From positions 32,001 to 96,000 of the forward strand of contig CBDAOY010000008.1 of the NCBI GenBank assembly GCA_965198225.1: 64,000 nucleotides of DNA, in the 5' to 3' direction. A model generated the notes under the pieces. The model was not told the origin of the DNA, ran no database searches, and saw only the letters and a list, made by a program, of their open reading frames with translations. Below, piece by piece: positions 3,182 to 55,167 of the stretch; position 1 is the stretch's first letter; every line of letters starts with the position of its first letter. Made by a program: the position numbers and the translations under genes. This DNA comes from Terriglobia bacterium (lineage in GTDB: Bacteria; Acidobacteriota; Terriglobia; 20CM-2-55-15).

Positions 3182-3326
3182 GATTCAGGGCGCGCTCACG
3201 CCCTGCTTCGTCGCCCGCTGACACGTTGGACGAATGCAGTAACGGATAACAAGATAGCCGCCAACAACATCACGATAAGCGTTGCAAACTTCGTTCCGGT
3301 GACCCAGGGCAGCCCTGCACTGGGCC

Positions 3327-3583
3327 TGTAACAGTGCTATCGGCACCATCGCCGATGGGTCTTGCGGGCGAGGTCGAGGAGGGAGACGGAAAGCGATGCT
3401 CTTTCATCGGTGACGGCTTCCGACAAAGAGATCGCCCGCAACCCCCATCGGCCCGAAGGGTTCGGCCCAACGGCGCCGTCTTCGGTGTCGTAACGCCCTC
3501 GCAATGAAACAGCATTGGCTCGAGCGTCACTCCTAGAATCCGACGCCGTTCCGCCGAACGCTGGTACCGATAGCACTGTTACA
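3327..3583. mobile_element. 257-bp MITE-like element with TGT...ACA ends
   Basis: 22-bp terminal inverted repeats TGTAACAGTGCTATCGGCACCA (3327-3348) / TGGTACCGATAGCACTGTTACA (3562-3583), 1 mismatch; no credible ORF. Confidence 0.7.
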
Positions 3584-4149: not shown

Positions 4150-4593
4150 TCATGAGTCTTGTCGCTCCAGAAAGGTTTTCAGGCTTTCGCGGAGAAAATA
4201 GTCCCACCCCGCCTGGCCGCTTTCGCGGCTGAAATCTGGATTGTCCTGCGGAAAGGTCTCAATTCCCTTGTGAGAAAACTTCAATTTCGTACCGCTGGGC
4301 GTTTCCGACAGTTCCCATGTGACAGACGAGTTTCCGGCGTAACCTCCGTATCGCCAGTTGTAAGCAATTCTCCTTCCCGGAACCACGTCGGTCACTTTCC
4401 ACTGGTGTGGGTAGTCCCGGTCTTCGACCCGTACATTGAACTGCGTTTCGAAACCTACTTCAGGTTCGAAGTCAGTGATCGTCTCGAAGAACCACTGACG
4501 CATTTGATCCTTGTCGGTAATGGCCTTCCAAACCACAGCGATGGGAGCGTTGAATGTGTGTTCCACGACGATCGGGTCTGCATTTATGTCCAT
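4150..4593 (-). CDS. SRPBCC/AHSA1-like domain protein (cassette gene)
   Basis: FNAPIAVVWKAITD..MRQWFF..F.PEVG..GTKLKFSHKG..GWDYFL; directly follows an attC R' box. Confidence 0.9.
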   Translation of the reverse strand: MDINADPIVVEHTFNAPIAVVWKAITDKDQMRQWFFETITDFEPEVGFETQFNVRVEDRDYPHQWKVTDVVPGRRIAYNWRYGGYAGNSSVTWELSETPSGTKLKFSHKGIETFPQDNPDFSRESGQAGWDYFLRESLKTFLERQDS

Positions 4594-4808
4594 GTGGTTC
4601 GTCCTGAAAGAATTGTCAACTGCAATCTAACGTCGTTGCCGTTAAGCTGCGGGCGCGAAACAAGGCGGCGCAAGCGAAGCTTGCGACCGCTAAGACCAGC
4701 TATCCGCCAGCTTCAACGGCTTGATACTCATGAAGGCCCCCAAAGCTGCCCGCCAGGCGGGCAGGCTGGAAAGGTAACCAAACCGATTCCAAGAAGGGGG
4801 CTTTCTGA

Positions 4809-5855
4809 ATGCGATTCTATACCAACCAACATGAGTACTACTGCGGGATCGACCTGCATGCACGGACGATGTGGATTTGCATCCTCGACTCGACCGGAGA
4901 AGTCTTGGTCGACAAGAACGTCAGTGCCGGACCCGAGGAGTTTCTGAGAGTGATCGAACCCTATCGATCCGATGTGGCCGTTGGCGTGGAATGCATTTTC
5001 ACTTGGTATTGGCTGGCGGACCTGTGCGAGCGGGAAGAGATCCGGTTCGTGCTGGGTCACGCCCTGTACATGAAAGCGATTCACGGTGGGAAAGCCAAGA
5101 ACGACCGGATCGATGCCTACAAGATCGCTGTGCTACTGCGCGGCGGCATGTTGCCCCAGGCCTACGTGTATCCGGAACCGATGCGCGCCACGCGGGATCT
5201 GCTCCGTCGCCGGCTGTATCTGGTCCGTATCCGCGGTGAGCTGCTGACTCACATCCAGAACACGAATCACCAGTACAATCTCGGCCCGATTCCATCGAAA
5301 CTCCAATACCCATCCAATCGCGACGGATTCGTCGAACGATTCACCGATCCGAGCGTCCGGAAGAGCATGGACGCGGATCTGGAACTGATCGGTCACCTGG
5401 AACGCGTGATCCATGCGATTGAGGTCTATGTCCTCAAGCAAGCCCGCCAGCACGATCCCGGAGCCGTTCATCTGTTGCGGTCCATCCCGGGTATCGGCAA
5501 GATCCTGGCGCTGACGATTCTCTATGAGATTCAGAACATCGACCGATTCGAACGCGTTCAGGATTTCGTCTCCTACTCCCGGCTAGTGAAGTGTGCCAAG
5601 GAGTCGGCCGGCAAGAGAATCAGCTCCAGTTCCGGCAAGAAGATCGGTAACGTCCATTTGAAGTGGGCGTTCTCTGAAGCTGCCGTTCTGTTCCTGCGGC
5701 AGAATCCCGATGGCCAGAAATTCTTGGCTCGGCTCAGCCGCAAGCACGGCAAACCGAAAGCATTGAGCATTCTCGCTCACAAGATCGGCCGCATCACCTA
5801 TCACCTGATGCGGAGGAGGACGAACTTCGACATGCGAAAGTTTCTTGCGGCTTGA
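4809..5855 (+). CDS. IS110-family transposase (DEDD RuvC-like plus Tnp20 domain)
   Basis: YCGIDLH, VGVEC, KNDRIDA, LRSIPGIG, KESAGK, GNVHLKWAFSEAA; intact 348 aa. Confidence 0.95.
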   Translation: MRFYTNQHEYYCGIDLHARTMWICILDSTGEVLVDKNVSAGPEEFLRVIEPYRSDVAVGVECIFTWYWLADLCEREEIRFVLGHALYMKAIHGGKAKNDRIDAYKIAVLLRGGMLPQAYVYPEPMRATRDLLRRRLYLVRIRGELLTHIQNTNHQYNLGPIPSKLQYPSNRDGFVERFTDPSVRKSMDADLELIGHLERVIHAIEVYVLKQARQHDPGAVHLLRSIPGIGKILALTILYEIQNIDRFERVQDFVSYSRLVKCAKESAGKRISSSSGKKIGNVHLKWAFSEAAVLFLRQNPDGQKFLARLSRKHGKPKALSILAHKIGRITYHLMRRRTNFDMRKFLAA

Positions 5856-6240
5856 CGGAAGGGAGCGGGAGAACCCTTTGCCTAACTGGCGTCGCTACGG
5901 TCTCATCCTCCATCGAGAATCATCATGCGTGCGGCACCGACCGCGATCACCGATTCTCATGGACCTTAGACCAGACAGCCATCTCGCTTGATTGGTTCCC
6001 GCTCCCGTTCCGACCCGACTGGTGCTCTGCCCCTCACCCGAGCCTGGAGCTAACTGGCGGCACACGCCGACACTTGAGTAGGACGGTACGAGGGTACTGA
6101 TGAATTTCTAGGTCGCGGTTCGATCCTGAACCGCAGTGCTGAGTCTTGACAGCGCTTGAACCTCAATAGGTGTTTGGTGCAGCGCATCTCGGCTGCACCG
6201 GCAATCGAATCCAAGTCGGAGCACGTCTCTCAACTTCGAA
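5856..6240 (+). ncRNA. putative bridge/seek RNA of the IS110 element
   Basis: Stem GGGAGCGGGAGAACC (5861-5875) / GGTTCCCGCTCCC (5994-6006) encloses target matches; a second loop carries donor-junction matches; boundaries approximate. Confidence 0.7.
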
Positions 6241-6316
6241 TTGGCTCACTGTCGTGAGCCATGAGGATTGGTGTCGCTCTTGACTCTACGGGGCCTTATA
6301 GGTGTTAGACAGCTCA

Positions 6317-6688
6317 TTAAGTGACGTGCGGCAGCGGTTCCAACTCTTCTAGGGCCGCCTTGGCTGATCGCATGGCATGCCAGAGATCCCAGTCTTGCTG
6401 TAATCCGAGCCAAAAGTCGGCACTCATCCCTGTGACGCGAGCCAACCGCAGCGCTGTGTCCGGGGTGACTGATCTCTTGCCTCGAATGATCTCATTCAGA
6501 CGGGGAAACGATACGCCCAGACGAATGGCAAAGGCCGACTGCGACACACCGAGCGGCTTTAGAAACTCCTCAAGGAGCATTTCGCCCGGATGCGTCGGAG
6601 GTTCATGGGTGGGCAGCGGGCGTGCCACCAGCGGCTTTTTCTTTGATCGGCGTTTAATGGTAGTCGGTGACTTCGACTTTGTCGGCAT
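6317..6688 (-). CDS. higA: HigA-family antitoxin (HTH)
   Basis: PTHPGEMLLEEFLKPLG.SQ...RLNEIIRGKRSVTPDTALRL...FWLGLQ. Confidence 0.92.
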   Translation of the reverse strand: MPTKSKSPTTIKRRSKKKPLVARPLPTHEPPTHPGEMLLEEFLKPLGVSQSAFAIRLGVSFPRLNEIIRGKRSVTPDTALRLARVTGMSADFWLGLQQDWDLWHAMRSAKAALEELEPLPHVT

Positions 6689-8425: not shown

Positions 8426-10111
8426 CTACCCGCTCGAGCGGTTGAGGGCGGGTAGGCTCAGAAGGGTTCCAACCGCCACCACCGCTACGGCTCCGACCAC
8501 ATTGTAGTAGAGGAAGGAAATGTCCGTCGTCTCGCTGACGGCGAACACTGACAGCATTCCCGCCAGCAGTCCAAGGAAGGCGCCGTTCCCGTCGGCCCTC
8601 TTTACCAGGAAGGCCAGAAGGAACACGCCCAAAAGGGACCCGTAAAAGTAAGATCCGACCAGATTGACGGCCTCGATCAGCGAGCCTAACTGACCGGCAA
8701 AGAGCGCAAATCCACTGGCAAGCATCCCCCAGAACAGGGTCGCTATCCGGGAAGCCTTCAGATAGTGTTCAGGAGGAGCCTCCCGTTTGAAGTAACGCCG
8801 ATAAAAATCCACGATCGTGGCACTGGAGAGGGCGGTCAGCTCGGAGTCGAGTGAAGACATGGCGGCCGCGAAGATGACCGCGATCATCAGACCCAGCACG
8901 CCAGCCGGCACGTACTTTATCAGGTAAGAAGGAAAGACGTAATTGACGTCGTTGGAGGATGCCCCACGCACCTCCTCGACCAGCTGCTTGGACTCGCTGC
9001 GCAGATCCGAAAGCTGCTGGTCGTACCCACTGATCTGTTGCCGCAAACCGAGCAGATCTTCCCCGTTGCGACGCGCCGCGAGCAGACTGAGGGTGGCTTC
9101 CTTTCTGAGATCGTGAGTGGCTTCATGTTCCGTATCCAGACGGGCGAACTCCTGGGCACGGGAACTGTCTTCAACCGCGGCCGTCTCGGCTGGATTGAAG
9201 ATCAAAGGAGGCCGTTCAAAGTGATAGAAGACAAACAGCAGGACGCCGATGGCCAGGATGGCGAACTGCATGGGGACCTTCACGAAGGCATTGAAGATCA
9301 GAGCGAGCCGACTCTGCTTCAGAGAGCTTGCTGTGAGATAACGCTGGACCTGGCTCTGATCGCAACCAAAATAAGCCAGCGCGAGAAAGAACCCTCCGAT
9401 CAAACCGGACCACAGCGTGTAGGTGTTGGTCGGATCCCAGGACAGATCGATACTCGACCACATCTGCTGGATTCCTCCGATGTAGACCACGTCCCCCATG
9501 GCCACCTCCGAGGGCAGAGCCCCGAACAGCACCACCAGAGCGACCGCGATCCCTGCAAACATCATCAGCATCTGCAGAACATCGGTCCAGATGACAGCCG
9601 TGATTCCACCCATCACCGTGTAAAGAATGGTCACCGCCCCCATGATCACGATGGTGACGGTCTCGTCCCAACCCATGATCACCGACAGCACCACCGCAGG
9701 GGCGTACAGCACAATTCCGGCCGCCATGCCGCGAGATAACAAGAACAGGAAACTGGTCAGGGACCGCGTCTTGGCATCAAAGCGATTCTCCAGGTATTCA
9801 TAGGCGGTATACACCCTGGCCCGGTAGAAGAAGGGAACAAACAACACACAGAGCAGCACCATCACCAGGGGCTGCGGCAGGTAGACCTGGATGAATTCCA
9901 TTCCACTCTCATAGGCCTGCCCGGTGGTGCCGATGAAGGTGATGGCGCTGGCCTGGGTGGCCATCACGGAAAGACCGATCGCCCCCCAGGGAAGGCGCCG
10001 ATTGGCCAGAAAGAAGCCCTCAACGCCGACGTTTTTCCGGCTCTGAGAGTAGGCAAAGGCCAGCACAGCGCCGAAGTAGATAGCAAAAACGAACCAGTCC
10101 AGGGTACTCAT
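8426..10111 (-). CDS. sodium:solute symporter (SSS) family transporter
   Basis: GLSVMATQASAITFIGTTGQ, YEYLENRFD, YFGCDQSQVQRYL, AAAMSSLDSEL; many TM segments; start set to ATG 10111. Confidence 0.93.
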   Translation of the reverse strand: MSTLDWFVFAIYFGAVLAFAYSQSRKNVGVEGFFLANRRLPWGAIGLSVMATQASAITFIGTTGQAYESGMEFIQVYLPQPLVMVLLCVLFVPFFYRARVYTAYEYLENRFDAKTRSLTSFLFLLSRGMAAGIVLYAPAVVLSVIMGWDETVTIVIMGAVTILYTVMGGITAVIWTDVLQMLMMFAGIAVALVVLFGALPSEVAMGDVVYIGGIQQMWSSIDLSWDPTNTYTLWSGLIGGFFLALAYFGCDQSQVQRYLTASSLKQSRLALIFNAFVKVPMQFAILAIGVLLFVFYHFERPPLIFNPAETAAVEDSSRAQEFARLDTEHEATHDLRKEATLSLLAARRNGEDLLGLRQQISGYDQQLSDLRSESKQLVEEVRGASSNDVNYVFPSYLIKYVPAGVLGLMIAVIFAAAMSSLDSELTALSSATIVDFYRRYFKREAPPEHYLKASRIATLFWGMLASGFALFAGQLGSLIEAVNLVGSYFYGSLLGVFLLAFLVKRADGNGAFLGLLAGMLSVFAVSETTDISFLYYNVVGAVAVVAVGTLLSLPALNRSSG

Positions 10112-10345: not shown

Positions 10346-10722
10346 GTGTAGGTGCGGTCTATGACCGCACATTCCGCGGATCGATAAGACTGTGCGGTCA
10401 TAGACAGTCACAGACACACATACACCCACCGTGCAACATCTCTCGCCCCCGGTGTAGGGGCGCTCTATCAAGCTGTGAACGAATACCATTTGTTTGAGAA
10501 TCGGGTGGCGGGGCTTTTCATGAAGAACCTGCGATTCTCAAGTGTAGGTGCGCTCTATGAGCGCACAAATGCCCGCGGGACCACAAGTTGTGCGGTCATA
10601 GACCGCACCTACACGTGAAAAGCCCCGCCACCCGATTTTCCGTTCCCATAATTCGTTCACAGCTTCTATGAGCGCACAGCGTTTCGGCTCGAAGAATGTG
10701 CGGTCACAGACCGCACCTACAC
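10346..10722. repeat. cluster of GTAG-type REP palindromes with a nested MITE
   Basis: Several copies of GTAGGTGCG(C/G)TCTATGA(G/C)CGCAC in inverted pairs; IR AAGCTGTGAACGAAT (10470-10484) / ATTCGTTCACAGCTT (10651-10665) splits one REP. Confidence 0.85.
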
Positions 10723-11132
10723 CCGTTTGCGGAGTTTGCCAATGCCGGTTATCAAAGCGTAGACCAGCAACGGTTCCCAGGTGAGGCCCCCGATGATGTG
10801 GCCCCAGAAGTGGACATGGACAGGGGCGCCGAGGTTGTAGGGCCATACCTGGAAGATAGTTTCGTTGCCCGACCACCAGGTGTAGCCGAGGCCGACGGAT
10901 TCGACGAGCATGTAGGGAGCGATCAGGGCGTAGGAGACGATGAGGCGCGCGCGGCGCGTGGTTTCTTTCGATGAGAAGAAGACGATAGCAATCAGGACGA
11001 CGGCCGTCATGGAGGCGTAACGCGCCCAATCGGCGAGGTCCGCCCAATCGGCGAGGTGACCGTGAGCGCGAACCGGATCGTGCCGACGGCCAGGATCAGA
11101 GGGATGAAGAGTTTTAGAGGGCTGTAGGGCAT
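10717..11132 (-). pseudogene. small membrane protein, apparently frameshifted
   Basis: Hydrophobic N-part (MPYSPLKLFIPLILAVGTIRFALTV) and C-part (RYASMTAVVLIAIVFF...HFWGHIIGG) in different frames around a 17-bp direct repeat at 11023-11057. Confidence 0.5.
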
Positions 11133-11156: not shown

Positions 11157-11501
11157 ATGTCGGATTGCCTGTTCTGCAAGATCATCGCCGGGGACATTCC
11201 TGCGAAGAAAGTATACGAAGACCAGGACGTGTTGGCGTTCGAAGATATCAGCCCGAAGGCCCCGACACACGTGCTCGTGATTCCCAAGAAACACATCCCG
11301 ACTTTGAACGACCTGGAGGAAGAGGACAACCCGGTTATGGGTAAGATCTTCCAGGTCGCGAAGCAGATCGCGCGGGAGCAGGGAATCGACCAATCCGGTT
11401 ACCGTACCGTTTTCAACGTGAACGAGTCAGCGGGACAGGCCGTCTTTCACATCCACCTGCACGTATTGGGTGGTCGGGCGTTGACGTGGCCGCCGGGCTA
11501 G
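11157..11501 (+). CDS. hinT: histidine triad (HIT) nucleotide-binding protein
   Basis: DCLFCKI, PKAPTHVLVIPK, GQAVFHIHLHVLGGR. Confidence 0.95.
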   Translation: MSDCLFCKIIAGDIPAKKVYEDQDVLAFEDISPKAPTHVLVIPKKHIPTLNDLEEEDNPVMGKIFQVAKQIAREQGIDQSGYRTVFNVNESAGQAVFHIHLHVLGGRALTWPPG

Positions 11502-31813: not shown

Positions 31814-32961
31814 TGCTGTATCACTTGCTGTGGGAATACCTCTATCCGATCGCGGCCGACTGGCCGGTCCTGAGTGTTCTGAACGTCTTTCAGTACATTA
31901 CCTTCCGGACGGCGATGGCGAGTATCACGGCGCTGTTGATCAGCCTGCTGCTCGGAGGGTGGCTGATCGGGCGACTCCGGGACTTTCAGATCGGCCAGAA
32001 CATCCGTGAGGATGGGCCGCAGTCGCATCACTCCAAAGCCGGCACCCCCACGATGGGCGGCGTTCTGATTGTCGTTTCGATCGTCCTGTCCACCCTGCTG
32101 TGGACCGATTTGAGCAACCCGTTCGGGTGGCTGCTGATCGGGTCCACACTGGCGTTCGGAGCGGTTGGCTTCGCTGACGACTACCTGAAGATCGTGCGGA
32201 AACGTTCGCTCGGGTTGAGGGCTCGAGCCAAGATCGGCCTGCAGGTGCTGATCACGCTGCTCGTCGGCTACGTGCTGCTCGACCTGACCGGTCGAGGCGT
32301 CTTCTCGACCCGTCTGACCGTACCTTTCTTCAAGACGTTTACACCCGATCTCGTGATGTCCGAGCTGGTGGCGGCACCGCTGTTCTTCTTCGGATTTCTG
32401 CCTTTCCTCTTGTTTATCAGCCTCGTCATCGTCGGCTCTTCGAACGCCGTGAACCTCACCGACGGGCTCGACGGACTGGCGATCGGATCGGTCTTGATCG
32501 CCTCCGGCGCGTTGACCGTGTTGACCTACGTGACGGGGCACGTCGTTTTCTCGGAATATCTCGACCTGCAGCATCTGCCCCGGGTCGGTGAAGTCACGAT
32601 CTTCTGTGGCTCGATGGCTGGAGCGAGCATGGGTTTCCTCTGGTACAACGCCCACCCGGCCGACGTCTTCATGGGAGACGTGGGTTCATTGTCGCTGGGT
32701 GGAGCGATCGGTACCGTTGCCGTCGTGATCAAACAGGAGTTGTTGTTGGTTTTTATTGGAGGAATCTTCGTTGTCGAGGCACTTTCGGTGATGGTCCAGG
32801 TGTTTTCTTTCAAGGTGCGCGGGAAGCGCGTCTTCAAGATGGCCCCACTCCACCATCACTTCGAACTCCTGGGCTGGGACGAATCGAAGATCATCATCCG
32901 ATTCTGGATTGCCGCGTTGTTGTTCGCGTTGGCGAGTCTGTCGACGCTGAAGCTGCGTTAG
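31813..32961 (+). CDS. mraY: phospho-N-acetylmuramoyl-pentapeptide transferase
   Basis: [40 protein letters not shown]. Confidence 0.97.
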
Positions 32962-41972: not shown

Positions 41973-42386
41973 ATGAACGGTGCCAGGATCATCGTAGCTC
42001 CCGGTATCCTCGAGGAGGTCATCGCGCATGCCCGCGGTTGCTTTCCGGAAGAGGGTTGCGGCTTCCTCGTGGGCCGGGAAGAGCGCGTCGAGCGGTTCGT
42101 CCCCGCCGAAAACGCGCTCGGAAGTAGGACAGCCTACAGTGTCGAACCCCGGTTCCTGTTCGAATTGTTCCGCGAACTCCGGGCGTCGGGCGAGAGTCTG
42201 GTGGCGATCTATCACTCCCACCCATCAGGCGAAGCGGCGCCGTCGTCGAGGGATATTGCCGAGGCGTACTATCCCGATAGCGCGCACCTCATCGTGTCGC
42301 TTCAAGACGAGAGTCAACCTGCGGTCCGGGCCTTCCGAGTCGTCGACGACAGCGTCACAGAAATCGAGCTTCATGCTATAGTCTAG
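41973..42386 (+). CDS. JAB/MPN+ (M67) metallopeptidase
   Basis: PEEGCG, YHSHP....PS..D JAMM motif. Confidence 0.9.
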   Translation: MNGARIIVAPGILEEVIAHARGCFPEEGCGFLVGREERVERFVPAENALGSRTAYSVEPRFLFELFRELRASGESLVAIYHSHPSGEAAPSSRDIAEAYYPDSAHLIVSLQDESQPAVRAFRVVDDSVTEIELHAIV

Positions 42387-43900: not shown

Positions 43901-44444
43901 ATGAGCAAGTTACTGTACTTTGCCTATGGTTCGAATATGCTGACGGAGCGGCTTCGCAGAAAGGTGTCCGTCAGCGTGCCCGGTTGTAGCCGCATATGTC
44001 GACGATTTTGTTTTGGAGTTTTCAAAGAAAAGCAAGGACGGTTCAGGCAAGGCGACTCTCGTGCAGTCACGAGGGCAGCGTCAGGACGGTGTTCTTTTCG
44101 AGATAAAGACCTGCGAGCGGGAAAATCTGGACCTCGCCGAAGGGGTCGGATTCGGCTATGATCGAGATGACAGCTTCAGTGTGATATTGGCTGATACAGG
44201 CGTTTCCAAGACCGTTATAACCTACATCGCGCCCGTCCAGCATCCATGTTTGAAGCCATTCGACTGGTATCTGGCACTCGTCGTTGCTGGCGCCAAGCAG
44301 CATAACCTCCCCGAGAAAATCATCGCTTCTTACCGGGATACCGAATTCCGTGAGGACGAAAAGGAGGAGCGTAAACTAGAAGCGCGGAAGGTGCTTAAAG
44401 AGGCAGGATGGGGAAGCGTCGAGCAGGTATTGGAACTGAATTGA
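43901..44444 (+). pseudogene. gamma-glutamylcyclotransferase (AIG2-like) protein, frameshifted
   Basis: YFAYGSNM N-part and FSKKSKDGSGKAT..GVLFEI..LDLAEG..PFDWY..VVAGA..H.LP C-part are in different frames. Confidence 0.75.
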
Positions 44445-44536
44445 AAGCATCAATCATTACGGGAACATATTAGCCTCCTTGGTCGATATGATCCGACAGC
44501 CGCCATGAGACCAACGGAGAGGAATGGGAGGTAGGC

Positions 44537-46009
44537 ATGGGCATCTTAATCGCACAGTTTGTGGCTGATCGTCTCCCCCGAATTTCCGGCTGGGTGAAGC
44601 TAACCGCAATCGCCGGGCTGCTCTTGATCTTTGCGGCTCTGCAGTCCACGCCCGCCCCGCGCGCTCCCCAAGCGGGAACCGAACCCCTGGGGTGCGCGGA
44701 TAAATCCATTGTCGCCAGCGCGGTAAGCACAACGGAGGACGTTCAAGCGTTCGTCCAATGCGCCTATGAGTATGTCCAGGAAATGGGATTTGAGGAGGCC
44801 CGGCGGGCCTTTCACGAGGATACGCGTTGGAAGAGCGGAGCCATCTATGTCTTCGTCTCCGAAGCGACCCCGATGAGCGATCAGGCGCGACTGTTCGTTT
44901 GGGCGCCCGCTCCTCCAAGGGTAGGATCCTCGCTAGGACTCCTCATCGACGCCTTCGGCAACGACTACTACAAGGAACAGCATCGTATCGTGAGCGGCTT
45001 CGGTGAGGGCTGGCTCTATTACTCGTTCCCAAACCCCGCAACGGGCCGGGAGGAGCCGAAGGCGACCTACATCAAGGGCATCGACTGGGAGGGAAACCTG
45101 GCCGCGATCGGGGCGGGGGTCTACCGCCGTGACCTTCCCGTCACCTGCGAGGCGGAAGAAGTCCACGCCATGGGGCTTGAGGCTGCACCTTCCGTTGAGA
45201 GGTTGAAGGTGTTTGTCCGCTGCGCGGCAATGAAGCTGGAATCGAAAGGGTACTTTGCCACTCGTGCGCTGTCTACCGATCCACGTTGGAACAGTGGTTC
45301 GATCTACCTGTTCGGCCTGGATACCTACGGCTACACGTTATTCAGCGGCGATCCCGACAGCCAGACGCATGGCATCTTTTCCCCAGCTTCCGAGTTGAAC
45401 GCCCATCCGGACGGCCCCTTCGGGGGTCGGGATGTGGTGAGCGTTGCGGACGCTTTCGGGGAAACCTTACTGTACTACTCGACGCGCAATCCCTCTACCG
45501 GAATGCCGCAGAGCAAGGTGGCTTTCGTCAAGAGGGTCGTGACCAATGGTCTGCCGGTTCTGGTCGGCTCCGGCTATTATGAGCCCCTGTCGCTGCCGGC
45601 GCCGGACGCGCAATCGGTCTGGAGCTATCTCCAAAGCGCGACGTACACGGACTGGCCGCTGTTTCCCGAAACGAGCCGCTTCCAACCGGGGATGTCGCCC
45701 CATGGCGCCCTGCTCATCACCTACGTCAACGATACCGCGCGGAACGCATTGACGCGCGGAACAGGCCCGATTGCTCCTGGCCCGCTGCCGGCCGGCTCGA
45801 TCATCGTCAAGGAGAACTACATGCCGGATCGCACGCTGGCTGCGGTGACGGTCATGTACAAGAGCGCCGGCTACAACCCGGAACACGGGGACTGGTACTG
45901 GCTGAAGCGCGCAGCGAACGGAAACGTGGACGCTGAGGGCAAGATCGAAGGATGCCAGAACTGTCACAGCGCCGCCGCGCGCGACTACGTGCTGACGGAG
46001 GTCCAGTAG
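44537..46009 (+). CDS. exported tandem Cache-domain protein fused to a cytochrome P460-like c-type heme domain
   Basis: Two repeats of (FV.CA...W.SG.IY.F...YY...NP.TG....K......G.GyY); C-terminal PHG..TYVN, GSIIVKENY, TVMYK, GDWYW, CQNCH. Confidence 0.75.
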   Translation: MGILIAQFVADRLPRISGWVKLTAIAGLLLIFAALQSTPAPRAPQAGTEPLGCADKSIVASAVSTTEDVQAFVQCAYEYVQEMGFEEARRAFHEDTRWKSGAIYVFVSEATPMSDQARLFVWAPAPPRVGSSLGLLIDAFGNDYYKEQHRIVSGFGEGWLYYSFPNPATGREEPKATYIKGIDWEGNLAAIGAGVYRRDLPVTCEAEEVHAMGLEAAPSVERLKVFVRCAAMKLESKGYFATRALSTDPRWNSGSIYLFGLDTYGYTLFSGDPDSQTHGIFSPASELNAHPDGPFGGRDVVSVADAFGETLLYYSTRNPSTGMPQSKVAFVKRVVTNGLPVLVGSGYYEPLSLPAPDAQSVWSYLQSATYTDWPLFPETSRFQPGMSPHGALLITYVNDTARNALTRGTGPIAPGPLPAGSIIVKENYMPDRTLAAVTVMYKSAGYNPEHGDWYWLKRAANGNVDAEGKIEGCQNCHSAAARDYVLTEVQ

Positions 46010-46204
46010 CGGGCTGTCCGGATGAGGCCGCGACCGGGTTGGTGCGACTCCGGTACTGGGACAGGTCCGGAGTCGCTCAGAATCGGCGTTCGGCCCTTCC
46101 CAGGCACTGGCGAGTTGAACGCGTCCGGGCGTCAGACAATTGGCTTTTCAGGTCGATCGGCCCGCTGCTTATGGCCACCGCTTTACCGCTAGGTTCCCTG
46201 CTAC

Positions 46205-46444
46205 TCATTCCAACCATTTGCGGCGCGGTCGATTCTTTAGCCGGTTGATCAACCAGCTTGCGCCCTCGACGGTCGACGGTTCGATATCGGCCAAATCATC
46301 CGCGTTGCGTTCCTTCTTGAGCCGCGCGATATGGGCCAGTTGCTTTTGAGTCGGGGGACTTGGCCCGGTACTCCGAAAGAACCACGCCAGCGAACCGACA
46401 ACGGCCACGACGAACACGACAGCCAGGAAGATCAGAAGTCCCAT
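46205..46444 (-). CDS. small membrane-anchored hypothetical protein
   Basis: N-terminal TM followed by PTQKQLAHI..L ... T..EASWLI..L. Confidence 0.55.
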   Translation of the reverse strand: MGLLIFLAVVFVVAVVGSLAWFFRSTGPSPPTQKQLAHIARLKKERNADDLADIEPSTVEGASWLINRLKNRPRRKWLE

Positions 46445-46631
46445 AATTTACTCGCCCGCAGCCTTTGTTTCGGCCCCGGAATCTCGCCCTGGATCGCGTT
46501 TCAGAGGCGTCCCCAGAGGTGGAGAGCCCCGCTGACTGAAACAACCGCCTTCGCGAAGCGTTGCAACAGGCTTCTATCACAGCTTCATGGCTAAACACCG
46601 CTCGCTCGGCACGGTTGAGCGCCGCCCGTTA

Positions 46632-47436
46632 GTGCGCCAAGCGAAGCTTGGCGCTTCTTGCAGGGTGCGAGTCCCTGCGGAGAAAGGGTTAACTACCCAC
46701 TCCTACTGAGTGTTGCAACTGCGACTGCGGAGGTGAAAGCCGAACAAGTCAGTTGAAGCGTACACAGGGAAGCATGCAGGCCGCAGGAGGGACCGCGACC
46801 TCCAAGGCTTGATACAGCCCCGTCATGGCGTTTGATGCAGACGGCGACGGTGTTAACGGTACCGGAAGCCAACATAGACGAACCGTTGTGGTGAGGTTCG
46901 CGAGGGTCTGCCGGGGTCCACCTTAGAGCGTGGCATGTATGCAGAGAAGCGTCAGGAACTTGGGAGACCCTGCGGTTTCCCGAGCTGAGACGCGATCGGA
47001 AACGACAGATCGCAGGGCATACGGCTAGTGAGCCCACACACGGGGAAACCCAGACCCAGGTAGGCCGGAGCCTAAACGAACTGGACGCCTGATCGACGAC
47101 AGCCACGGGTAGACAGGCTCGACCAAACAAAGAGCCATCGATGATTCGCAGGGAGTCAGATCCGCTCATACTACTCGGAGACGGTAGCGCCGATCACATG
47201 GGGAAGGGGCGGACAGAAGTACGTAGCTGGTACAGGAAACATTGTCCGGCGACGAAGGGCCGGAACAAACAATGCCAACCTCACTGCTGGCGATAGCAAA
47301 GAAGGCTGAGGAAAGGAAACATCCCTTTCTTGGTGCTGGACGCGGAAGCGAGTACTTCTGAGGAGCCCGGTGCCGGAAAACGGCACGCCGGGATCTGCGC
47401 GGGGGCGGTTCGGGCAACTGGCCGTCCTACCGCGAT
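46632..47436 (+). ncRNA. group II intron with the RT ORF internally deleted
   Basis: 5' GTGCG at 46632; domain V GAGCCCGGTGCCGGAAAACGGCACGCCGGGATC; domain VI ending CCTACCGCGAT at 47436; only about 29 codons of ORF remain (MPTSLLAIAKKA.. from 47272). Confidence 0.88.
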
Positions 47437-47484
47437 GATGCACAAAGCTTGTCCCTGCCAAGGAATCGGGCATAGCATGTAACT

Positions 47485-47583
47485 ATGAGTAAGCCCTTGG
47501 TTTCCACGTCGAGCGACGTCATGGGGGGGCCTGTTTTATCCGGAACACGTGTGCCCGTGCAGACCCTCTTCGAGTACTTGGAG
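47485..47583 (+). pseudogene. DUF433 antitoxin N-terminal fragment
   Basis: MSKPLVSTSSDVMGGPVLSGTRVPVQTLFEYLE, then the sequence changes character. Confidence 0.7.
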
Positions 47584-47584
47584 C

Positions 47585-47755
47585 CTGGTCAAAGCCACGT
47601 ACTTCACATCGCCGTCGAGGACGTAGCCGAGCATGCACCCCACGGGTAGATTCTCCGAGTACTGCCCTGTAGTGAAACGAGAGAGTCCATCCATCACGTA
47701 CTTCTTCGCCAGCGACCTCCTGCCGTTGTCGCGGGGTACGTTCAGGCGCTTACCG
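47585..47755 (-). pseudogene. fragment of a hypothetical protein
   Basis: KRLNVPRDNGRRSLAKKYVMDGLSRFTTGQYS..LPVGCMLGYVLDGD reads like real coding sequence but has no start or end of its own. Confidence 0.45.
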
Positions 47756-47794
47756 CGCCGCATTGTGCTAGGCTGCTCGGGAACGGGGGATCCC

Positions 47795-49351
47795 ATGAAG
47801 GCTACCATCTGTCTGATCGTCACGCTCCTGCTCGCGGCGCCCGCCGCCGCGCAATTCGCCGAGGTCGGGTCGCTCGACTTTCCGACGTCCGCGCGTTCGG
47901 AGGAGGCGCAGCGCCATTTCCTGCGGGGCGTCGCCATCCTGCACAGCTTCGGCTGGAAGCAGGCCATCGAGCAGTTCCAGGCCGCGCAGGCCATCGAGCC
48001 GGACTTCGTTCTCGCGTACTGGGGCGAGACGCTAAGCTACAACCACCCGCTGTTCGGCGGCGGGCCCGGCCTCGACGAGGAGAATCCCCGCGCGGTGCTC
48101 GCGCGGCTCGGTCCGACGCCGTCGGCGCGGGCCGCCAAGGCACCGACCGATCGCGAGAGGGGCTTCCTCGAAGCGGTCGAGGTCCTGTGGAGCGACGAGG
48201 GAATCTACAACGAGCGGCGGGTCGGCTACATGGAGGCGATGGAGCGGCTCTACGAGCGCTACCCCGACGACGACGAGGTGGCGACGTTCTACGCGCTCTC
48301 GATGCTGTCCGGATCCCGTGCACTCGGCGATCAGTCGTTGCGGCTTGAGGTGCGGGCCGGCACGATCGCGATGAAGGTGTTCAACGAGAACCGCGACCAT
48401 CCCGGAGCGGTGCACTACACCATTCACGCCTTCGACGATCCGATCCATGCCCCGCTGGCACTCGACGCGGCCCACCGCTACGCCGAGATAGCACCGGCGG
48501 TCTCGCACGCGCGGCACATGCCGACGCACATTTTCATCCAGCACGGCATGTGGGACCTCGTCTCGCAGCACAACCAGTTGGCGCACGACGCGGCCATCGC
48601 TCTGTGGGAGCCCGACGACAGCGTCAGCGACGCGGTCCATTCGCTCGACTGGGGTCAGTACGGCGATCTGCAGCGCGGGGACTACGACAAGGCCCGAGTC
48701 TGGATCGAAAGGCTGGAACGGCTCATCGCCGACAGCGACGGGCAGGCGCGAGCCGTCAGCGCGCTGCCCTTGGTCAACGCCCGCTACGTGGTGGAGACCG
48801 AGCAGTGGCGCGTCGAGCCGATCACGGACGACTCGTCGATGCACGAGCTGCTGGCCACGGGCCTGAGCGCGGTCCGCAGCGGCGACCTGGCCACGGCGCG
48901 CGAGGCCGAGGCGGCGCGGGCGGCGCGGGCCGAGAACGGGGGCGCACAAGATCGCATCGCCCACAAGGAGGTCACCGCCTCGATTCAGGCGGCCGAAGGC
49001 GAGGCCGAGGCGGCGATCGCCTCGATGGACGAGGCTATCGCCATCGTCGAGACGCTGCGTCTGCCGAACGGCGCGGCTAGCCCAGTCAAGCCGCCGTACG
49101 AGCTGTACGGCGAGATCCTGCTGCAGCTCGGGCGCTACGACGACGCGCTCGAGAAGTTCGAGACCTCGCTGCTCCGCATGACGAACCGTATGCGTTCGCT
49201 GCTCGGCGCGGCCCGCGCTGCCGCGGCCGTCGGGGATCGCGCCACCGCCCGCGAGCGCTACGCGACGCTCGCCGACTTCTGGATTGGCGCGGCCGACGAT
49301 CCGGGCTACGCCGAGGCGCGTGAGTTCATCGCCTCGACGAACGACAACTGA
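47795..49351 (+). CDS. exported TPR-repeat protein
   Basis: Signal peptide MKATICLIVTLLLAAPAAA; F.RGVA.LHSF, YWG, HPGA.HY.IH..D, HA.HMPTHIF; very high GC3. Confidence 0.85.
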   Translation: MKATICLIVTLLLAAPAAAQFAEVGSLDFPTSARSEEAQRHFLRGVAILHSFGWKQAIEQFQAAQAIEPDFVLAYWGETLSYNHPLFGGGPGLDEENPRAVLARLGPTPSARAAKAPTDRERGFLEAVEVLWSDEGIYNERRVGYMEAMERLYERYPDDDEVATFYALSMLSGSRALGDQSLRLEVRAGTIAMKVFNENRDHPGAVHYTIHAFDDPIHAPLALDAAHRYAEIAPAVSHARHMPTHIFIQHGMWDLVSQHNQLAHDAAIALWEPDDSVSDAVHSLDWGQYGDLQRGDYDKARVWIERLERLIADSDGQARAVSALPLVNARYVVETEQWRVEPITDDSSMHELLATGLSAVRSGDLATAREAEAARAARAENGGAQDRIAHKEVTASIQAAEGEAEAAIASMDEAIAIVETLRLPNGAASPVKPPYELYGEILLQLGRYDDALEKFETSLLRMTNRMRSLLGAARAAAAVGDRATARERYATLADFWIGAADDPGYAEAREFIASTNDN

Positions 49352-49516
49352 CGTAGCCCGGAGCCCGTCGCGCCTTGCGGTCACGGGCTCCTGATCTTGC
49401 AGCGAAGCCGGCTTCGCGCCTCGTGCGCGGGGCCGGCAGACTAGTCTCGGCCCCCCTGACCTGCCTCAGCCCGAGACACCTCTAGGGCCAGTCGTGCCAC
49501 ATTCACAGCATCGAAC

Positions 49517-49796: not shown

Positions 49797-50828
49797 CCGC
49801 TCTACATCTTTTCGGGAGAGCATCTGCTATGCGCCCGGTTGCGGTGCTCCAATGTCGACGGTGCGGACGGCGCCGTCGAGGAATTGAACCGCATCATCGG
49901 CCAGATCCGGCAGAGCTGGCCGGAGGTGTCGATTATCATCCGGGCCGACTCGGGCTTTTGCCGGGATGAATTGCTGAGTTGGTGCGAGGCCCACCAGGTC
50001 GATTACGTGGTGGGTCTGGCCAAGAACGATCGGCTCAAGCGCGAGATCGCTGAATCGATGAGTCAGGCCGAAGCCGAGTTTAACGACACCGGGAAACCGG
50101 CGCGGGTGTTTAACGATTTCCGGTATCGCACTCGGAAGAGCTGGACCTGCGAACGACGCGTCATCGGCAAGGCCGAGTTCCTGGAGAAAGGCGCCAATCC
50201 TCGATTCGTTGTGACCTCACTGTCGCCGGAACGCCTGGACGCCCGCGCCCTCTATGAAGACTTTTACTGTGCGCGGGGCGACATGGAAAATCGCATCAAG
50301 GAACAGCAGTTGGATCTATTCGCCGACCGGACCAGCGCGGCAACCATGCGCGCCAATCAACTCCGGCTCTATCTGTCCTCGGCCGCCTACATGCTCCTGC
50401 ACGCGTTACGCCGTCTGGGACTGAAGAATACCGATCTGGCCCGCGCTCAGTGCCAGACGATCCGCTTGAAGCTCCTCAAGATCGGAGCTCAAGTCCGTCT
50501 GACGGTTCGCAACATCTGGATCTCCATGTCGGAAGCCTATCCCTACGCCGAGGTCTTTGCCCTCGTCCATCGAAACCTGCAGGCGCTTCCTCTGCGCTGC
50601 TGAGAACCGACCCGATCCCCTGCGCCAAAATCGACTCGCTCTTTTCGGCTCCGTCGAGGTTTGTCTCAGTGCGTTTCGTCACCCTCTTCTGAACCCGAAA
50701 ACGCAGCAACTCCCGCTTGTCGACACCGCCGAGTCACGCCACACATGCCCAATTCGAACCCAGATCCTCCCGAATCCGATTCTTACTGCCCAAATCCCCC
50801 TGATCGCCGGACTGGTGAAACATGCGGG
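49797..50828 (+). mobile_element. IS1380-family element, 5'-truncated
   Basis: PLYIF.GEHLLCARLR, IIIRADSGFCR, YCARGDMENRIKEQQLDLFADRTS, ANQLRL; right end GTGAAACATGCGGG. Confidence 0.85.
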
Positions 50829-51008
50829 CTAGTAGGGGTTACGATAGCAACGGTGCAAAATCCAACGCTATGGGCTGCTGGACCTGAAGCGATCAGGCAG
50901 TGTCCGACTTGAAGGGTTCGTTGAAATGATTGGGCTGTGTCGTGATTCTTTGGGGTTTCTGTGAGCCCCAGAGTGCCCGATTTGATTGACCGATGAAATC
51001 GTACATAA

Positions 51009-51542
51009 TGGCCGGGTGAACCTCCGAGCCATCGCCGTCTACCTCCGGGTATCCACGAGCCGTCAAGACCTCCGATCTCAGGAGCCCGAACTCCAGAGTT
51101 GGCTTCAGACCCACGCCGCTGACCGCCCTGTCGTCTGGTATTGAGATCGGCATACCGGTCGCTCCCTAGACCGTCCAGCTCTTGGGCGGCTCGAACGGGA
51201 CATCATCGCCGGCAAGGTAGGAACTGTCGTCGTCTGGCGCAACGACCGGATGGGTCGGCGCGCCCGCCAGCTACTGGTCTTCCTTGAGGACCTGGACGAG
51301 CGCAAGATCGACTACATCTCGGTACGAGACGGGCATCTGACGGGCGACAGTGCTTCAGCCAAGATATTCCGCCATATGCTGGTCGGCATGGCCGAGTATG
51401 AGAGTAACCTGATCTCGGAGCGTACCCGTGCGGGCCTGGCCGCAAAAAAGGCTCGGGGTGAGACGTGGGGCGGGCGAAAGAAGGGGCAGCGCTACCGGCT
51501 GACGCCGGAGAAGCTCCAGGCAGTCAAGGGACTCCTCGCCGA
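51009..51542 (+). pseudogene. serine recombinase (resolvase) pseudogene
   Basis: AIAVYLRVST..Q, internal stop, DRP.L, VVVWRNDRMGR, AEYE..LISERTRAGL..GGR; cut at a Tn3-like IR. Confidence 0.8.
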
Positions 51543-52746
51543 GGGGCTCTGGGTGCAATTAAACAAAGGTACCAAATCCGTCATAGAAATCGGTCCGAAT
51601 TGCGAGGCTACTAGGCACTCAGGTCGAGGGCTGGAAGCAGGAGCGGGGCACCTGGGTCAAATATCGGAATACGGTCCTTTCGCTGACAGCGAGTGCATTG
51701 ACGATCTCCGGGATCGTCAATCCTTGTTTTCTGAGCTGGGCCGCCCGGGTGGGCTTTGATTTGGTGGTCCCTTTCTGCCTGCCGCGATAGATCCCTTGAG
51801 TTTTGGCCACAGCGATTCCTGCGTGTTGACGCTCTCGGCGATACTCCAGTTCGATTTCTGCCAACCCGAACATGACGCTGGCTACCATCCGGCCCACCGG
51901 GACCGCTGAGGTCAATCTGTTGGGTGATCGAAACAACGCGCACGCCGCGCTCGCCCCAATCGGCGATCCGATTGATGCCGTCTTGAAGTCGACGCGAGAT
52001 TCGGTCGAGTTTCCAGACGATGACCGTCTTGATCGTGCCGTCGAATATCGCTTTTTCCATCTGTTCGAAAGCGACACGGTGGACAGTCTGTCCCGTTTCT
52101 TTGTCCTCGAACCAGGTCACCCTGGATGGGGAAATCCCGTGGGCTCGGAGCCACCGCGTGATTTCGGCCTTTTGGCTGTCGGTCTTCTGTCGCCGGGATG
52201 AGACGCGACAGTAGTTGCCGTAGTAGCCGTGAAAGAACCGTTTTGGCTGTCGGTCTTCTGTCGCAGCATGCGATCATAACGACACTGCCCTTTCCAATGG
52301 GTTGAGGTGGTATCTCATACTGCCAAGTAGAGTATGGTCTAGTTGGCAGTAATCTCGAGCTGCTGAAAGCCCGGTTTTTCGCACTCAGTGTCGGCAGAAA
52401 TCTCTGGAAACCCTATTTGTCACCCTCAGACTGCCGAAACAGGATTCCCCCTGGCGCGTGCTCGGGTGGGTAGGGAATGCCACGGATGAGCATTCTAACT
52501 GCGAACGAGAAGGAAGCCCTCGAGTCGCCTCCGGATCGGTCGTTGCCCGGCATCACATCAACCTGCACGGCAAGTACGATTTCGCGGCCGAGAAGCTGCA
52601 AGATTCGGTCGGTCTGGAGGTGCCCAAAATCCGTCAGCTCGAGGTGGGTTGAAACTGGGAGTATAGATTTCGGCTCAAACGCTAGAGGCAACAAAGGTTA
52701 ACCGTGATCGCTATGACGGATTTGGTACCTTTGTTTAAATGCACCC
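51543..52746. mobile_element. internally deleted Tn3-family element
   Basis: 36-bp IRs GGGTGCAATTAAACAAAGGTACCAAATCCGTCATAG (51551-51586) / 52711-52746 with 1 mismatch; holds a resolvase and fused TnpA-like termini (MPRMSILTANEKEALESPP; HINLHGKYDF). Confidence 0.8.
51619..52230 (-). pseudogene. resolvase, frameshifted
   Basis: YCRVSSRRQ, FEDKETG, VWKLDRISR, frameshift near 51900, AEIE.E.RRERQ.AGI, C-terminal HTH. Confidence 0.8.
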
Positions 52747-52749
52747 TAG

Positions 52750-53561
52750 GGCGTGTTAACACTAACGTAGTGCCTCGACGATGAGCGCGAAGTGAAGGAA
52801 GGCGAGGAACATGACGTCGAGTTTATCGAAACGGGAGAAGATACGCCGGAAACCCTTGAGTCGGCGGAAGAGCCTCTCGACTTCGTTCCTGCGGCGGTAG
52901 AGCACGCGGTCGTATTCCCACGGCTCCAGGCGGTTGCGCTTGGGCGGCACGACGGGAATCCACCCAAAATCCAGAGCCAATTGGCGGGTCTGGTCGTCCT
53001 GGTAGGCACGGTCCATCAGCAGCGGCAGCGGCGCGGGCAATGGCCCCAGGCCGGCGAGCAGATCGCGGCCCTGCGGGGCGTCGTGCGCTTGGCCGGGCGA
53101 GAGCGCAAACGTTATCGCCGTTCGAGCATTCGCGGCAACCAGATGAATCTTGGTGGTCCATCCGCCGCGGGATTTGCCGATCGCTTGCGGACCGTTTTTT
53201 TTAACGCTCCCGTGCCGTCGGGATGCACCTTCACAATGGTTGAGTCCATCGAAACGGCTTCGACCCGGATGCGGACCAGTTGCTCGCGCTGGAGTTTCTC
53301 GAAGACGGCGTCGAGCACGCCGTTCTTGGACCAGCGGTTCATCCGGGTGTAGATGGTGTGCCAGTTGCCAAAGCGCTTGGGCAGACCGCGCCACTTGCAG
53401 CCCTGCTCAGCCACATACAAAATGGCGTTCAAGACCGTCAGGTTCGAAAGACTGACGTTGCCCCGCTGACGCGGCAGTTCCGGCTCGATGCGACAATACT
53501 GCTCCTGTGTGATCTCCATGCGTGATTATAAAACATTCATGCTCATTAGTGTTAACACGCC
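52750..53561 (-). mobile_element. complete IS5-family element (IS427-like, two ORFs)
   Basis: 16-bp perfect IRs GGCGTGTTAACACTAA, CTAG on both flanks; ORFs 53112-53519 and 52762-53394 overlap at an A8 run (53195-53202), consistent with -1 frameshifting. Confidence 0.93.
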
Positions 53562-53578
53562 CTAGTCTCTCGGAACCT

Positions 53579-54879: not shown

Positions 54880-54894
54880 GGTTTTCCGACGTCT

Positions 54895-55167
54895 AGCAGC
54901 CCGTGGCAGAAGTCTGATGGTTCGCGCGCACGGGTCTTCGGAGGCGGAGACGAGGCGCGAGGAGGAATTGATGCTGTTTCATCATGACGACGAGCAACAA
55001 AGTATCCGAACCGCAACCCCCGTGCGCGCGGAGGGTTACGGCGGCGTCACACACGGGCGTTGTTGCCGCGCGACATTTCTCCGGACCCGCAGGCCGGTCG
55101 GCCGGCGCCTAGCATCTGGCGCAACGCCGCCGTAACGCGAGCCATCAGACTTCTGCCACGGGCTACT
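54895..55167. mobile_element. MITE-like element between divergent genes
   Basis: IR AGCCCGTGGCAGAAGTCTGATGG(T/C)TCGCG at 54898-54926 and 55136-55164. Confidence 0.75.

Follow-up and report, generated by a model that had tools for sequence, protein, structure and literature searches.

According to a 2015 review of group II introns (PMC4424553), targeting of integron attC sites is confined to class C, and homing is found in all lineages except class C. The attC-specific introns of that class (IIC-attC) have no second exon-binding site (EBS2), pair with the exon over 3 to 4 bp, and insert at TTGT/T in the bottom strand, antisense to the cassettes (PMC7923331). Introns of other classes have also been reported from such surroundings, namely, H.ha.F1 and H.ha.F2, two class E fragments that have lost their 5' parts and come from an attC cluster of Halorhodospira halochloris (Sonbol and Siam 2021, PMC7923331), and UHB.I2, a chloroplast-like class 1 intron just past an attC (PMC7923331). 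Our search of the open-access literature found nothing closer to the element described here than the IIC-attC introns and these class E fragments. That element is an 805-nt group II intron without an open reading frame (ORF) of its own, located at positions 46632 to 47436 (plus strand) of a 64-kb stretch of DNA from a Terriglobia bacterium. This stretch, referred to below as the window, comprises positions 32001 to 96000 of contig C8 in a 6.4-Mb genome assembled into 9 contigs. The intron is very probably a non-autonomous derivative of a family of IIB-like introns that home to attC sites.

An ORF-less group II intron with these ends had been proposed from the sequence alone, and Rfam matches, a check of its ORFs, and three further copies in the same genome with identical ends all bear this out. 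The intron starts with GUGCG (46632-46636) and ends in ...CCTACCGCGAT, with the final GAU at 47434-47436, in agreement with the GUGYG and AY termini of group II introns. Its domain I core matches the complete RF02005 model (group-II-D1D4-6; model positions 1-225) with 112.1 bits (E value of 6e-31; cutoff, 49), which is the sole gathering-level Rfam match across the window. Domain V, a hairpin with the AGC triad, and domain VI are covered by RF00029 (model positions 1-77; 43.0 bits; cutoff, 40). In the RF00029 alignment, the loop of domain V consists of 5 nt, GAAAA, between GUGCCG and CGGCAC, and domain VI is short, with the bulged branch-point A at 47429, 7 nt before the 3' end (7 to 8 nt is typical of group II introns). 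No reverse transcriptase ORF was found in the intron interior; the longest sense ORFs there code for 51 and 50 amino acids (aa), and neither is a reverse transcriptase. A 29-codon ORF within domain IV begins with approximately 19 residues that represent a remnant of the intron protein, 11 of 18 being identical to the N terminus of an intact relative. Since only this N-terminal remnant is kept, the element is evidently a deletion derivative of an ORF-bearing intron. The features of the locus, together with the exon-binding sites (EBS) and intron-binding sites (IBS) discussed below, are as follows.

46554 to 46631, plus strand: 5' exon remnant of 78 nt, with the L'-like box GGTTGAGC (46613-46620), a spacer (46621-46627), and the R' start GTTA (46628-46631).
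46616 to 46624, plus strand: IBS2, UGAGCGCCG, pairing with 46826-46834.
46626 to 46631, plus strand: IBS1, CCGUUA, the exact complement of 46854-46859.
46668 to 46930, plus strand: domain I core (RF02005, 112.1 bits).
46826 to 46834, plus strand: EBS2, UGGCGUUUG, from the test of own versus permuted exons in 31 introns.
46854 to 46859, plus strand: EBS1, UAACGG, from complementarity, covariation, and the same test.
47170 to 47171, plus strand: empty site, CCGCTCATA/CTACTCGG, at which a degenerate copy of the intron on contig C6 contains a nested, intron-like repeat of 911 nt.
47272 to 47361, plus strand: remnant of the intron-protein gene in domain IV, matching the N termini of intact relatives.
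47361 to 47436, plus strand: domains V and VI (RF00029, 43.0 bits).
47437 to 47561, plus strand: 3' exon remnant of 125 nt, with IBS3 (G47437), GAT completing GTTAGAT, and the start of a DUF433 gene at 47485.

The original prediction rested on the loop sequence TAACGG being complementary to the last six bases of the 5' exon, CCGTTA, and this pairing stands. EBS1 occupies the terminal loop of a hairpin at 46848-46864 (CGGT.../...ACCG), where the Rfam consensus has a hairpin as well, and the same IBS1 is present at an independent copy of the intron on contig C6 (C6:296063). In the relatives, EBS1 and the exon vary together, as in the pairs TAACGC-GCGTTA, TAACGA-TCGTTA, AGAAAT-ATTTCT, AACCTT-AAGGTT (seen twice), and CAATTT-AGATTG. 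Across 31 introns, the longest run of pairing between EBS1 and the intron's own exon averages 5.58, versus 4.56 for permuted exons, a value that none of 2,000 permutations reached. Because the match recurs and covaries across relatives, the complementarity of EBS1 and IBS1 is evidently beyond chance. Six relatives (L089, L091, L103, L098, L024, and L046) have wholly different EBS1 loops, each with a matching exon that does not end in GTTR; the family therefore retargets to other sites by changing EBS1.

For EBS2, the proposal was right about the positions of CGGCG (46842-46846) and CGCCG (46620-46624) but not about the role of the former. CGGCG lies inside helices of the Rfam consensus and stays GGCGAC in L024, whose IBS2 is AAUUG, so that it was rejected as EBS2. 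The true EBS2 is the internal loop at 46826-46834, which belongs to the 5' strand of the helix bearing the EBS1 hairpin and is unpaired in the Rfam consensus. Nine consecutive base pairs, 4 of them G-U, can form between it and the IBS2 sequence UGAGCGCCG, of which CGCCG is the core; a single spacer base (C46625) is left between IBS2 and IBS1. In the same 31 introns, the pairing of EBS2 with its own exon averages 4.68, versus 3.85 for permuted exons, again with none of 2,000 permutations reaching the observed value, and, in our reading of the loops and exons, IBS2 changes in relatives are matched by changes in the EBS2 loop. The base at +1, which serves as IBS3, is G in 19 of the 23 complete copies. 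Finally, an alpha-alpha' interaction might link ACCA, in an early loop of domain I, with UGGU, in the terminal loop that follows EBS1; both motifs are constant in the 6 to 7 aligned copies and thus show no covariation.

Relatives were collected by an exon-blind scan with the first 23 nt of the intron in one genome per species, which yielded at least 109 stretches; 80 loci with 81 junctions were examined. Within the taxonomic family of the host, 15 of 34 genomes (including the one with the window) have intron matches, and several of the 5' exons in that family share ...GGYTGAGCGCC-N(4-6)-GTTA/ with the window. Going by their labels, the hosts include Chromatiaceae, several groups of Desulfobacterota, Nitrospira, Nitrospinia, NC10, Acidobacteriota, Chloroflexota, Spirochaetes, Lentisphaerae, Verrucomicrobiota, Chlamydiae, Legionella, Acidimicrobiia, and Bacteroidota, among others. 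The plasmid collection gave a single weak match (70% identity over 29% of the query) and thus no sign of the family on the plasmids that it holds. Complete copies (n = 23) comprise 13 ORF-less ones of 643 to 883 nt, one of 1,364 nt, and nine of 1.8 to 2.3 kb. The intact proteins of relatives are 406 to 480 aa long; among the six tested, RVT_1 was found in all, GIIM in five, and an endonuclease domain in none. One relative's locus (L028) also contains an Acido-Lenti-1 small RNA (RF01687, 44.5 bits) at 2762-2806 on the plus strand.

The expectation that the relatives' 5' exons would end in GTTA within attC sites is supported. The ends are GTTA at 45 and GTTG at 18 of the 81 junctions (63 together), and many of the 5' exons form complete hairpins whose far ends (GCCTAAC, GTCTAAC, ACCTAAC, GCCCAAC) fit the attC consensus RYYYAAC. 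In a logo of 78 unique exons, the last five positions are C (66%), G (92%), T (89%), T (92%), and A (65%) or G (25%), preceded by T-G-A..C at positions -15 to -10. Among the 19 junctions with a known 3' exon and a 5' exon ending in GTTN, removal of the intron restores GTTRRRY in 12 (P = 5e-4, against an expectation of 1/4), and GGC follows in 7 (GTTA/GGC type; P = 1e-4). Relatives inserted at non-attC sites, shifted boundaries, or TAACGG lying outside the d3 loop had been named as outcomes that would speak against the prediction, and none of the three was the result.

At the level of the family, the target is thus evidently the integron attC, as judged with a homemade covariance model built from 11 intron-adjacent exons and applied to 93 loci. 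When aligned, these exons fold into a structure in which a spacer separates the R box from the L box. A single base of the L box is bulged on the 5' arm, and compensatory changes occur at 10 of the 15 pairs. At 30 of 89 junctions, a match to this model ends no more than 1 nt from the end of the 5' exon; 11 of these junctions are seeds, and the 19 that are not include the copy at C6:296063. Matches distant from the introns form arrays, with up to 7 of them per 8-kb locus, spaced by single small genes that encode toxin-antitoxin, TIR, and AbiU2 proteins. A strict regular-expression search for attC sites (RYYYAAC...GTTRRRY plus a hairpin) proved too insensitive and was dropped, having returned 39 matches in the genome and 10 intervals in 467 kb of loci. 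The idea that the targeted hairpins are some other palindromic intergenic repeats or terminators, with their GTT/AAC ends imposed by EBS1, might draw on the training of the model with intron-adjacent sequences and on the scarcity of integron integrase genes, as intI was found within 8 kb of the intron in only 2 of 80 loci. However, the left ends of the hairpins, which the intron does not touch, fit RYYYAAC; the bases at +2 and +3, past IBS3, favor GC (the 7 of 19 junctions mentioned above); the intron-distant matches line up on the same strand around the small genes just named; and intI, where present, has the expected geometry, being divergent from the intron both times. This explanation is accordingly very improbable. 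Most of the arrays may lack an integrase or have it outside the 8-kb loci.

Three lines of evidence agree in placing the intron in sense with the cassettes, namely, the divergent intI genes, from which the intron points away just as cassettes do, a Pfam-based test of upstream ORFs, and the gene neighbors in the genome that contains the window. The flanking arrays share this polarity: model matches in the flanks lie on the strand of the intron in 47 cases and on the opposite strand in 7, or 32 versus 1 for the best 52 matches. Raw counts of ORF orientation were noisy (upstream, 50 of 66 sense versus 32 of 66 antisense; downstream, 9 versus 7 of 18) and were replaced by a Pfam-based test at the first 10 junctions with both sense and antisense upstream candidates; there, ORFs with a Pfam match (E value of at most 1e-4) were in sense at 8 of 10 and in antisense at 0 of 10. 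The Pfam-supported neighbors are in sense at all three sites of the genome that contains the window. The two nearby intI genes, both divergent, encode proteins 51 to 67% identical to the integrase of this genome. One of the members beside intI, in L125, is an ORF-less intron of 782 nt (approximately 4550-5332, minus strand) next to intI at 5490-6385 (plus strand), with the junction ...CTTGTAGTTA/GAC; its site apparently is an attI-cassette junction rather than an attC. Because of the 63 of 81 exon ends, the RYYYAAC hairpins, the same-strand arrays, the divergent intI, and the sense genes, the proposal that EBS1 of a IIB-like intron outside class C reads the top-strand attC core is supported, through the relatives rather than through the window alone.

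These features set the family apart from the IIC-attC introns. As with that lineage (e.g., S.ma.I2; PMC7923331, PMC4424553), its members are attC specialists that insert near the GTT/AAC triplet, encode proteins without an endonuclease domain, and also occur in attC clusters without an integrase. However, IIC-attC introns recognize the folded bottom-strand hairpin and insert in R'' (PMC7923331, PMC4424553), whereas the present family has a IIB-type domain I matching RF02005 and a ribozyme of approximately 620 nt without the ORF, uses a 6-bp EBS1 together with an EBS2 that matches its own exon, pairs inside the top-strand 3' arm (L', spacer, R'), and inserts at GTTA/GGC, in sense. With EBS2 present, the sense orientation, and the GTTR/G junction, membership in the IIC-attC lineage fails on the features tested, and we give it next to no probability despite the shared target and the shared lack of an endonuclease domain.

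The class E and class F introns (IIE/IIF) described by Nagy et al. (2013; PMC3753933) are a better fit. Like the present intron, they are small IIB-like ribozymes (450 to 700 nt, not counting the ORF) that have EBS1 and EBS2 in domain I and 5 nt in the loop of domain V, a trait of both classes. Their alpha' element lies in the terminal loop of the domain I d3 stem-loop, a position for which UGGU is a candidate here. The present family differs from IIF, which tends to have long domain VI stems (PMC3753933), in its short domain VI, and the published IIE/IIF members are not described as attC-specific in the excerpted parts of that paper. The window intron is therefore best explained as a IIB-like intron of the IIE/IIF type, from an endonuclease-less family. 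Of the original assignment to "class E/IIB-like" introns, the IIB-like part agrees with domain I (RF02005) and EBS2; class E is a plausible candidate, and the 5-nt domain V loop fits IIF too. The presence of RVT_1 and GIIM without an endonuclease domain in the relatives' proteins fits classes C to F alike.

H.ha.F1, H.ha.F2, and UHB.I2 (PMC7923331) resemble the present family in being IIB-type, in the cassette orientation, in their toxin-antitoxin-rich arrays, in their endonuclease-less proteins, and in having an attC-like hairpin upstream. The 5' truncation of the Halorhodospira fragments precludes an analysis of their junctions and EBS/IBS pairings, and a role of the upstream structure was only speculated upon in the excerpt of that work, whereas complete copies of the present family provide the exact junction, the pairings, and the spread over many phyla. 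The suggestion that this is a different attC-homing strategy is thus supported, although it was partly anticipated by the class E fragments of Halorhodospira (PMC7923331).

The other copies in the same genome bear on the loss of the ORF. The one on contig C5 is 100% identical and belongs to a 5-kb segment that duplicates window positions 44518-49513 (97.6% identity), so that it does not represent an independent insertion. The copy at C6:296063-296868 (806 nt, 98% identical) has other flanks, ...GCCGATCCGTTA/intron/GATTGCAG, and has a Phd-ParE pair on one side and a second ParE gene on the other; an attC-model match of 27.3 bits, not among the seeds, ends exactly at its junction. The third copy, at C6:1003531-1005821 (2,291 nt, 90 to 94% identity), is degenerate and flanked by ...CAGCCGTTG/intron/GGCCGAC. 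Three attC sites detected by the model lie directly upstream of it on the same strand, and a weak, 13-bit match ends at the junction itself; LamG-like and TIR cassettes and then an ORF without a Pfam match are found upstream and an AbiU2 gene downstream. This copy was considered as an intact full-length parent and rejected, as the N-terminal half of its protein is gone and its domain IV contains a repeat of 911 nt; its ORF keeps the half from YADD to the maturase domain, with 61% identity over 190 aa.

The repeat in question (L021, 1373-2283, minus strand; C6:1004372-1005282) starts with GTGCG, ends in ...CUCUAC, and has a domain V/VI-like 3' end that scores 37 to 38 bits, below the cutoff. 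It exists in at least 15 copies at 93 to 100% identity plus one diverged copy (81%), and besides domain IV of the degenerate intron it is found just upstream of six identical intron-protein genes. These features suggest a twintron, that is, an ORF-less group II intron nested in other introns, to which it homes.

ORF-less group II introns that are served in trans by related proteins are rare in bacteria, according to the same review (PMC4424553). As with such introns, the window element has retained its ribozyme along with the beginning of the ORF. The same deletion is shared by two copies (805 and 806 nt, 98% identical) whose flanks differ, from which it follows that the ORF-less form itself appears to have moved. 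The family differs from that description in that 13 of its 23 complete copies are ORF-less and that no intact cognate intron protein was found in this genome, where the best intact proteins, present in 6 copies, are 37% identical. Thus, of the two marks of service in trans, the window intron shows the absence of a reverse transcriptase ORF, and its genome does not show the related intact protein. The only integron integrase gene of the genome (C6:488798-489706, minus strand; TIGR02249, 446 bits) has a TGA stop shortly after the catalytic tyrosine and is far from all intron copies. Beside it (L023), a 61-nt stretch is exactly repeated 1.56 kb apart (9741-9801 and 11297-11359), and these repeats may bound a single cassette.

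Several observations weigh against the attC-homing reading. At 18 of the 81 junctions, the 5' exon does not end in GTTA or GTTG, and some of these sites follow ordinary genes, valS and one for a MoxR ATPase among them; the family is therefore not exclusive to attC. Junctions from one genome, e.g., the 7 from a single assembly, are not independent. The model calls attC at no more than 30 of 89 junctions, 11 of which served as its training seeds, while intI is as scarce as described above. The assignment to the top strand by the position of the bulged base, which is in the 5' arm, depends on the general picture of attC structure. In a hairpin-energy test, sites (35 of 77) and controls (105 of 462) were modestly separated (Mann-Whitney P = 8.5e-4), because GC-rich controls also fold well. 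Splicing and mobility of the family are what we infer from sequence comparison; contigs from RNA libraries (runs X15 to X18), 90 to 95% similar to parts of related copies, contain no 46631/47437 joint, and they hold such small shares of the stretch that they are silent either way on splicing or expression. The same caution applies to the window site itself, where the model scores 6.1 bits on 46530-46631, with no RYYYAAC partner and the left arm unseen, as the original prediction had conceded; an attC origin of this site is suggested by its right half and a cassette-like neighbor.

That right half has the predicted form. With the intron removed, GGTTGAGC (46613-46620) is followed by GCCGCCC (46621-46627), GTTA (46628-46631), and GAT (47437-47439), an arrangement of L'-like box, spacer, and GTTAGAT, the last of which fits GTTRRRY. 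The gene start noted downstream is also real, as ORF 47485-47649 is a DUF433 fragment (26.8 bits; cutoff, 23.6) that begins 48 nt from the intron in sense. The homology of the left neighbor to 7 related loci ends at 46553, and another repeat unit, 98.8% identical to a sequence on contig C4, starts at 47562, cutting the DUF433 gene. The intron with its exon remnants (78 nt on the 5' side and 125 nt on the 3' side) thus forms an island of approximately 1 kb in a mosaic of insertion sequence (IS) elements and repeats, which we read as a fragment of a former cassette junction.

For this copy alone, one might suppose retrotransposition into an ordinary intergenic look-alike, in which the attC likeness would be a by-product of recognition by EBS2, EBS1, and EBS3. 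The low model score and the unseen left arm agree with this, as do the retargeted relatives at non-attC sites and the lack of attC-model matches near the intron (the single weak one in the window is at 4628-4729, with an E value of 0.18). However, the L' box match extends past the paired stretch, all 11 bases of GGTTGAGCGCC recurring in the L' box of the attC that carries the intron in L027; a cassette-type gene follows in sense; the two other sites in the genome sit in cassette arrays; and the breakpoints at 46553 and 47562 would account for the missing left arm. We consider insertion into a look-alike unlikely. Under the preferred reading, as a derivative of an attC-homing intron, the window copy is probably a stranded relic, since its junction is cut on both sides, the 5-kb block around it is duplicated, and the genome has no intact cognate reverse transcriptase.

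Other parts of the window are also rich in repeats. A 261-nt repeat at 3323-3583, with more than 45 copies at 95 to 99% identity on all large contigs and a diverged set at approximately 81%, resembles a miniature mobile element, and two short dispersed repeat families of approximately 220 to 275 nt (10452-10723 and 54893-55167) have 10 to 15 copies each at 89 to 97%. Positions 49797-53565 hold pieces of mobile elements, including fragments of resolvases, a DDE transposase (PF13701, 294 bits), and a repeat of 820 nt with two further copies elsewhere, both 100% identical. Genes upstream of the intron encode a JAB/RadC-like protein (41973-42386, plus strand; PF14464, 75.5 bits), an AIG2-like protein (44013-44444), and a protein with Cache and cytochrome P460 domains (44537-46009).

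In the mechanism that we propose, recognition is a matter of ordinary pairing between RNA and DNA. EBS2 pairs with the L' box (TGAGC type) on the cassette-coding (top) strand, EBS1 with NCGTTR, where the spacer ends and R' begins with its first four bases, and EBS3 with the next G. The insertion point, GTTA/GGC, lies 3 nt past the integrase crossover. Being in sense with the cassettes, the intron could be cotranscribed with them and spliced out of their transcripts, which would render the insertion harmless to downstream expression. Mobility would follow the route of other endonuclease-less introns, which are reported to reverse-splice into single-stranded DNA at replication forks (PMC8914252); the intron would enter DNA while it is transiently single-stranded, with the fork supplying the primer. 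The ORF-less form would have been mobilized in trans in the past.

A further, tentative proposal, to which we give somewhat less than an even chance, is that an IIE-type lineage distributed over many phyla, with more than half of its complete copies ORF-less, lives as a parasite of cassette arrays that reads the attC arm and may travel between hosts as a cassette leader. Insertion would take place 3 nt inside the downstream cassette, and the 5' G of the intron would preserve GTTAG; the attC may then stay recombinogenic, and the integrase may carry the intron along with the downstream cassette. If this is true, the spread across phyla would be accounted for, and the integrase would be a vehicle for a retroelement.

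For the biology of group II introns, the family would represent a second and mechanistically different route of specialization on integrons, by a sequence-reading, IIB-type intron acting on the other strand and in sense. Unlike in IIC-attC introns, this orientation would permit removal from cassette transcripts by splicing. The proportion of ORF-less copies contradicts the view of such forms as rare in bacteria, and the family appears to be frequent in environmental cassette arrays of many phyla. It may also explain "broken" attC sites and fused cassettes in genome annotation, and it raises the questions of whether an intron-bearing attC recombines, whether introns spread on cassettes, and whether programmable tools for attC-directed insertion could be derived from them.

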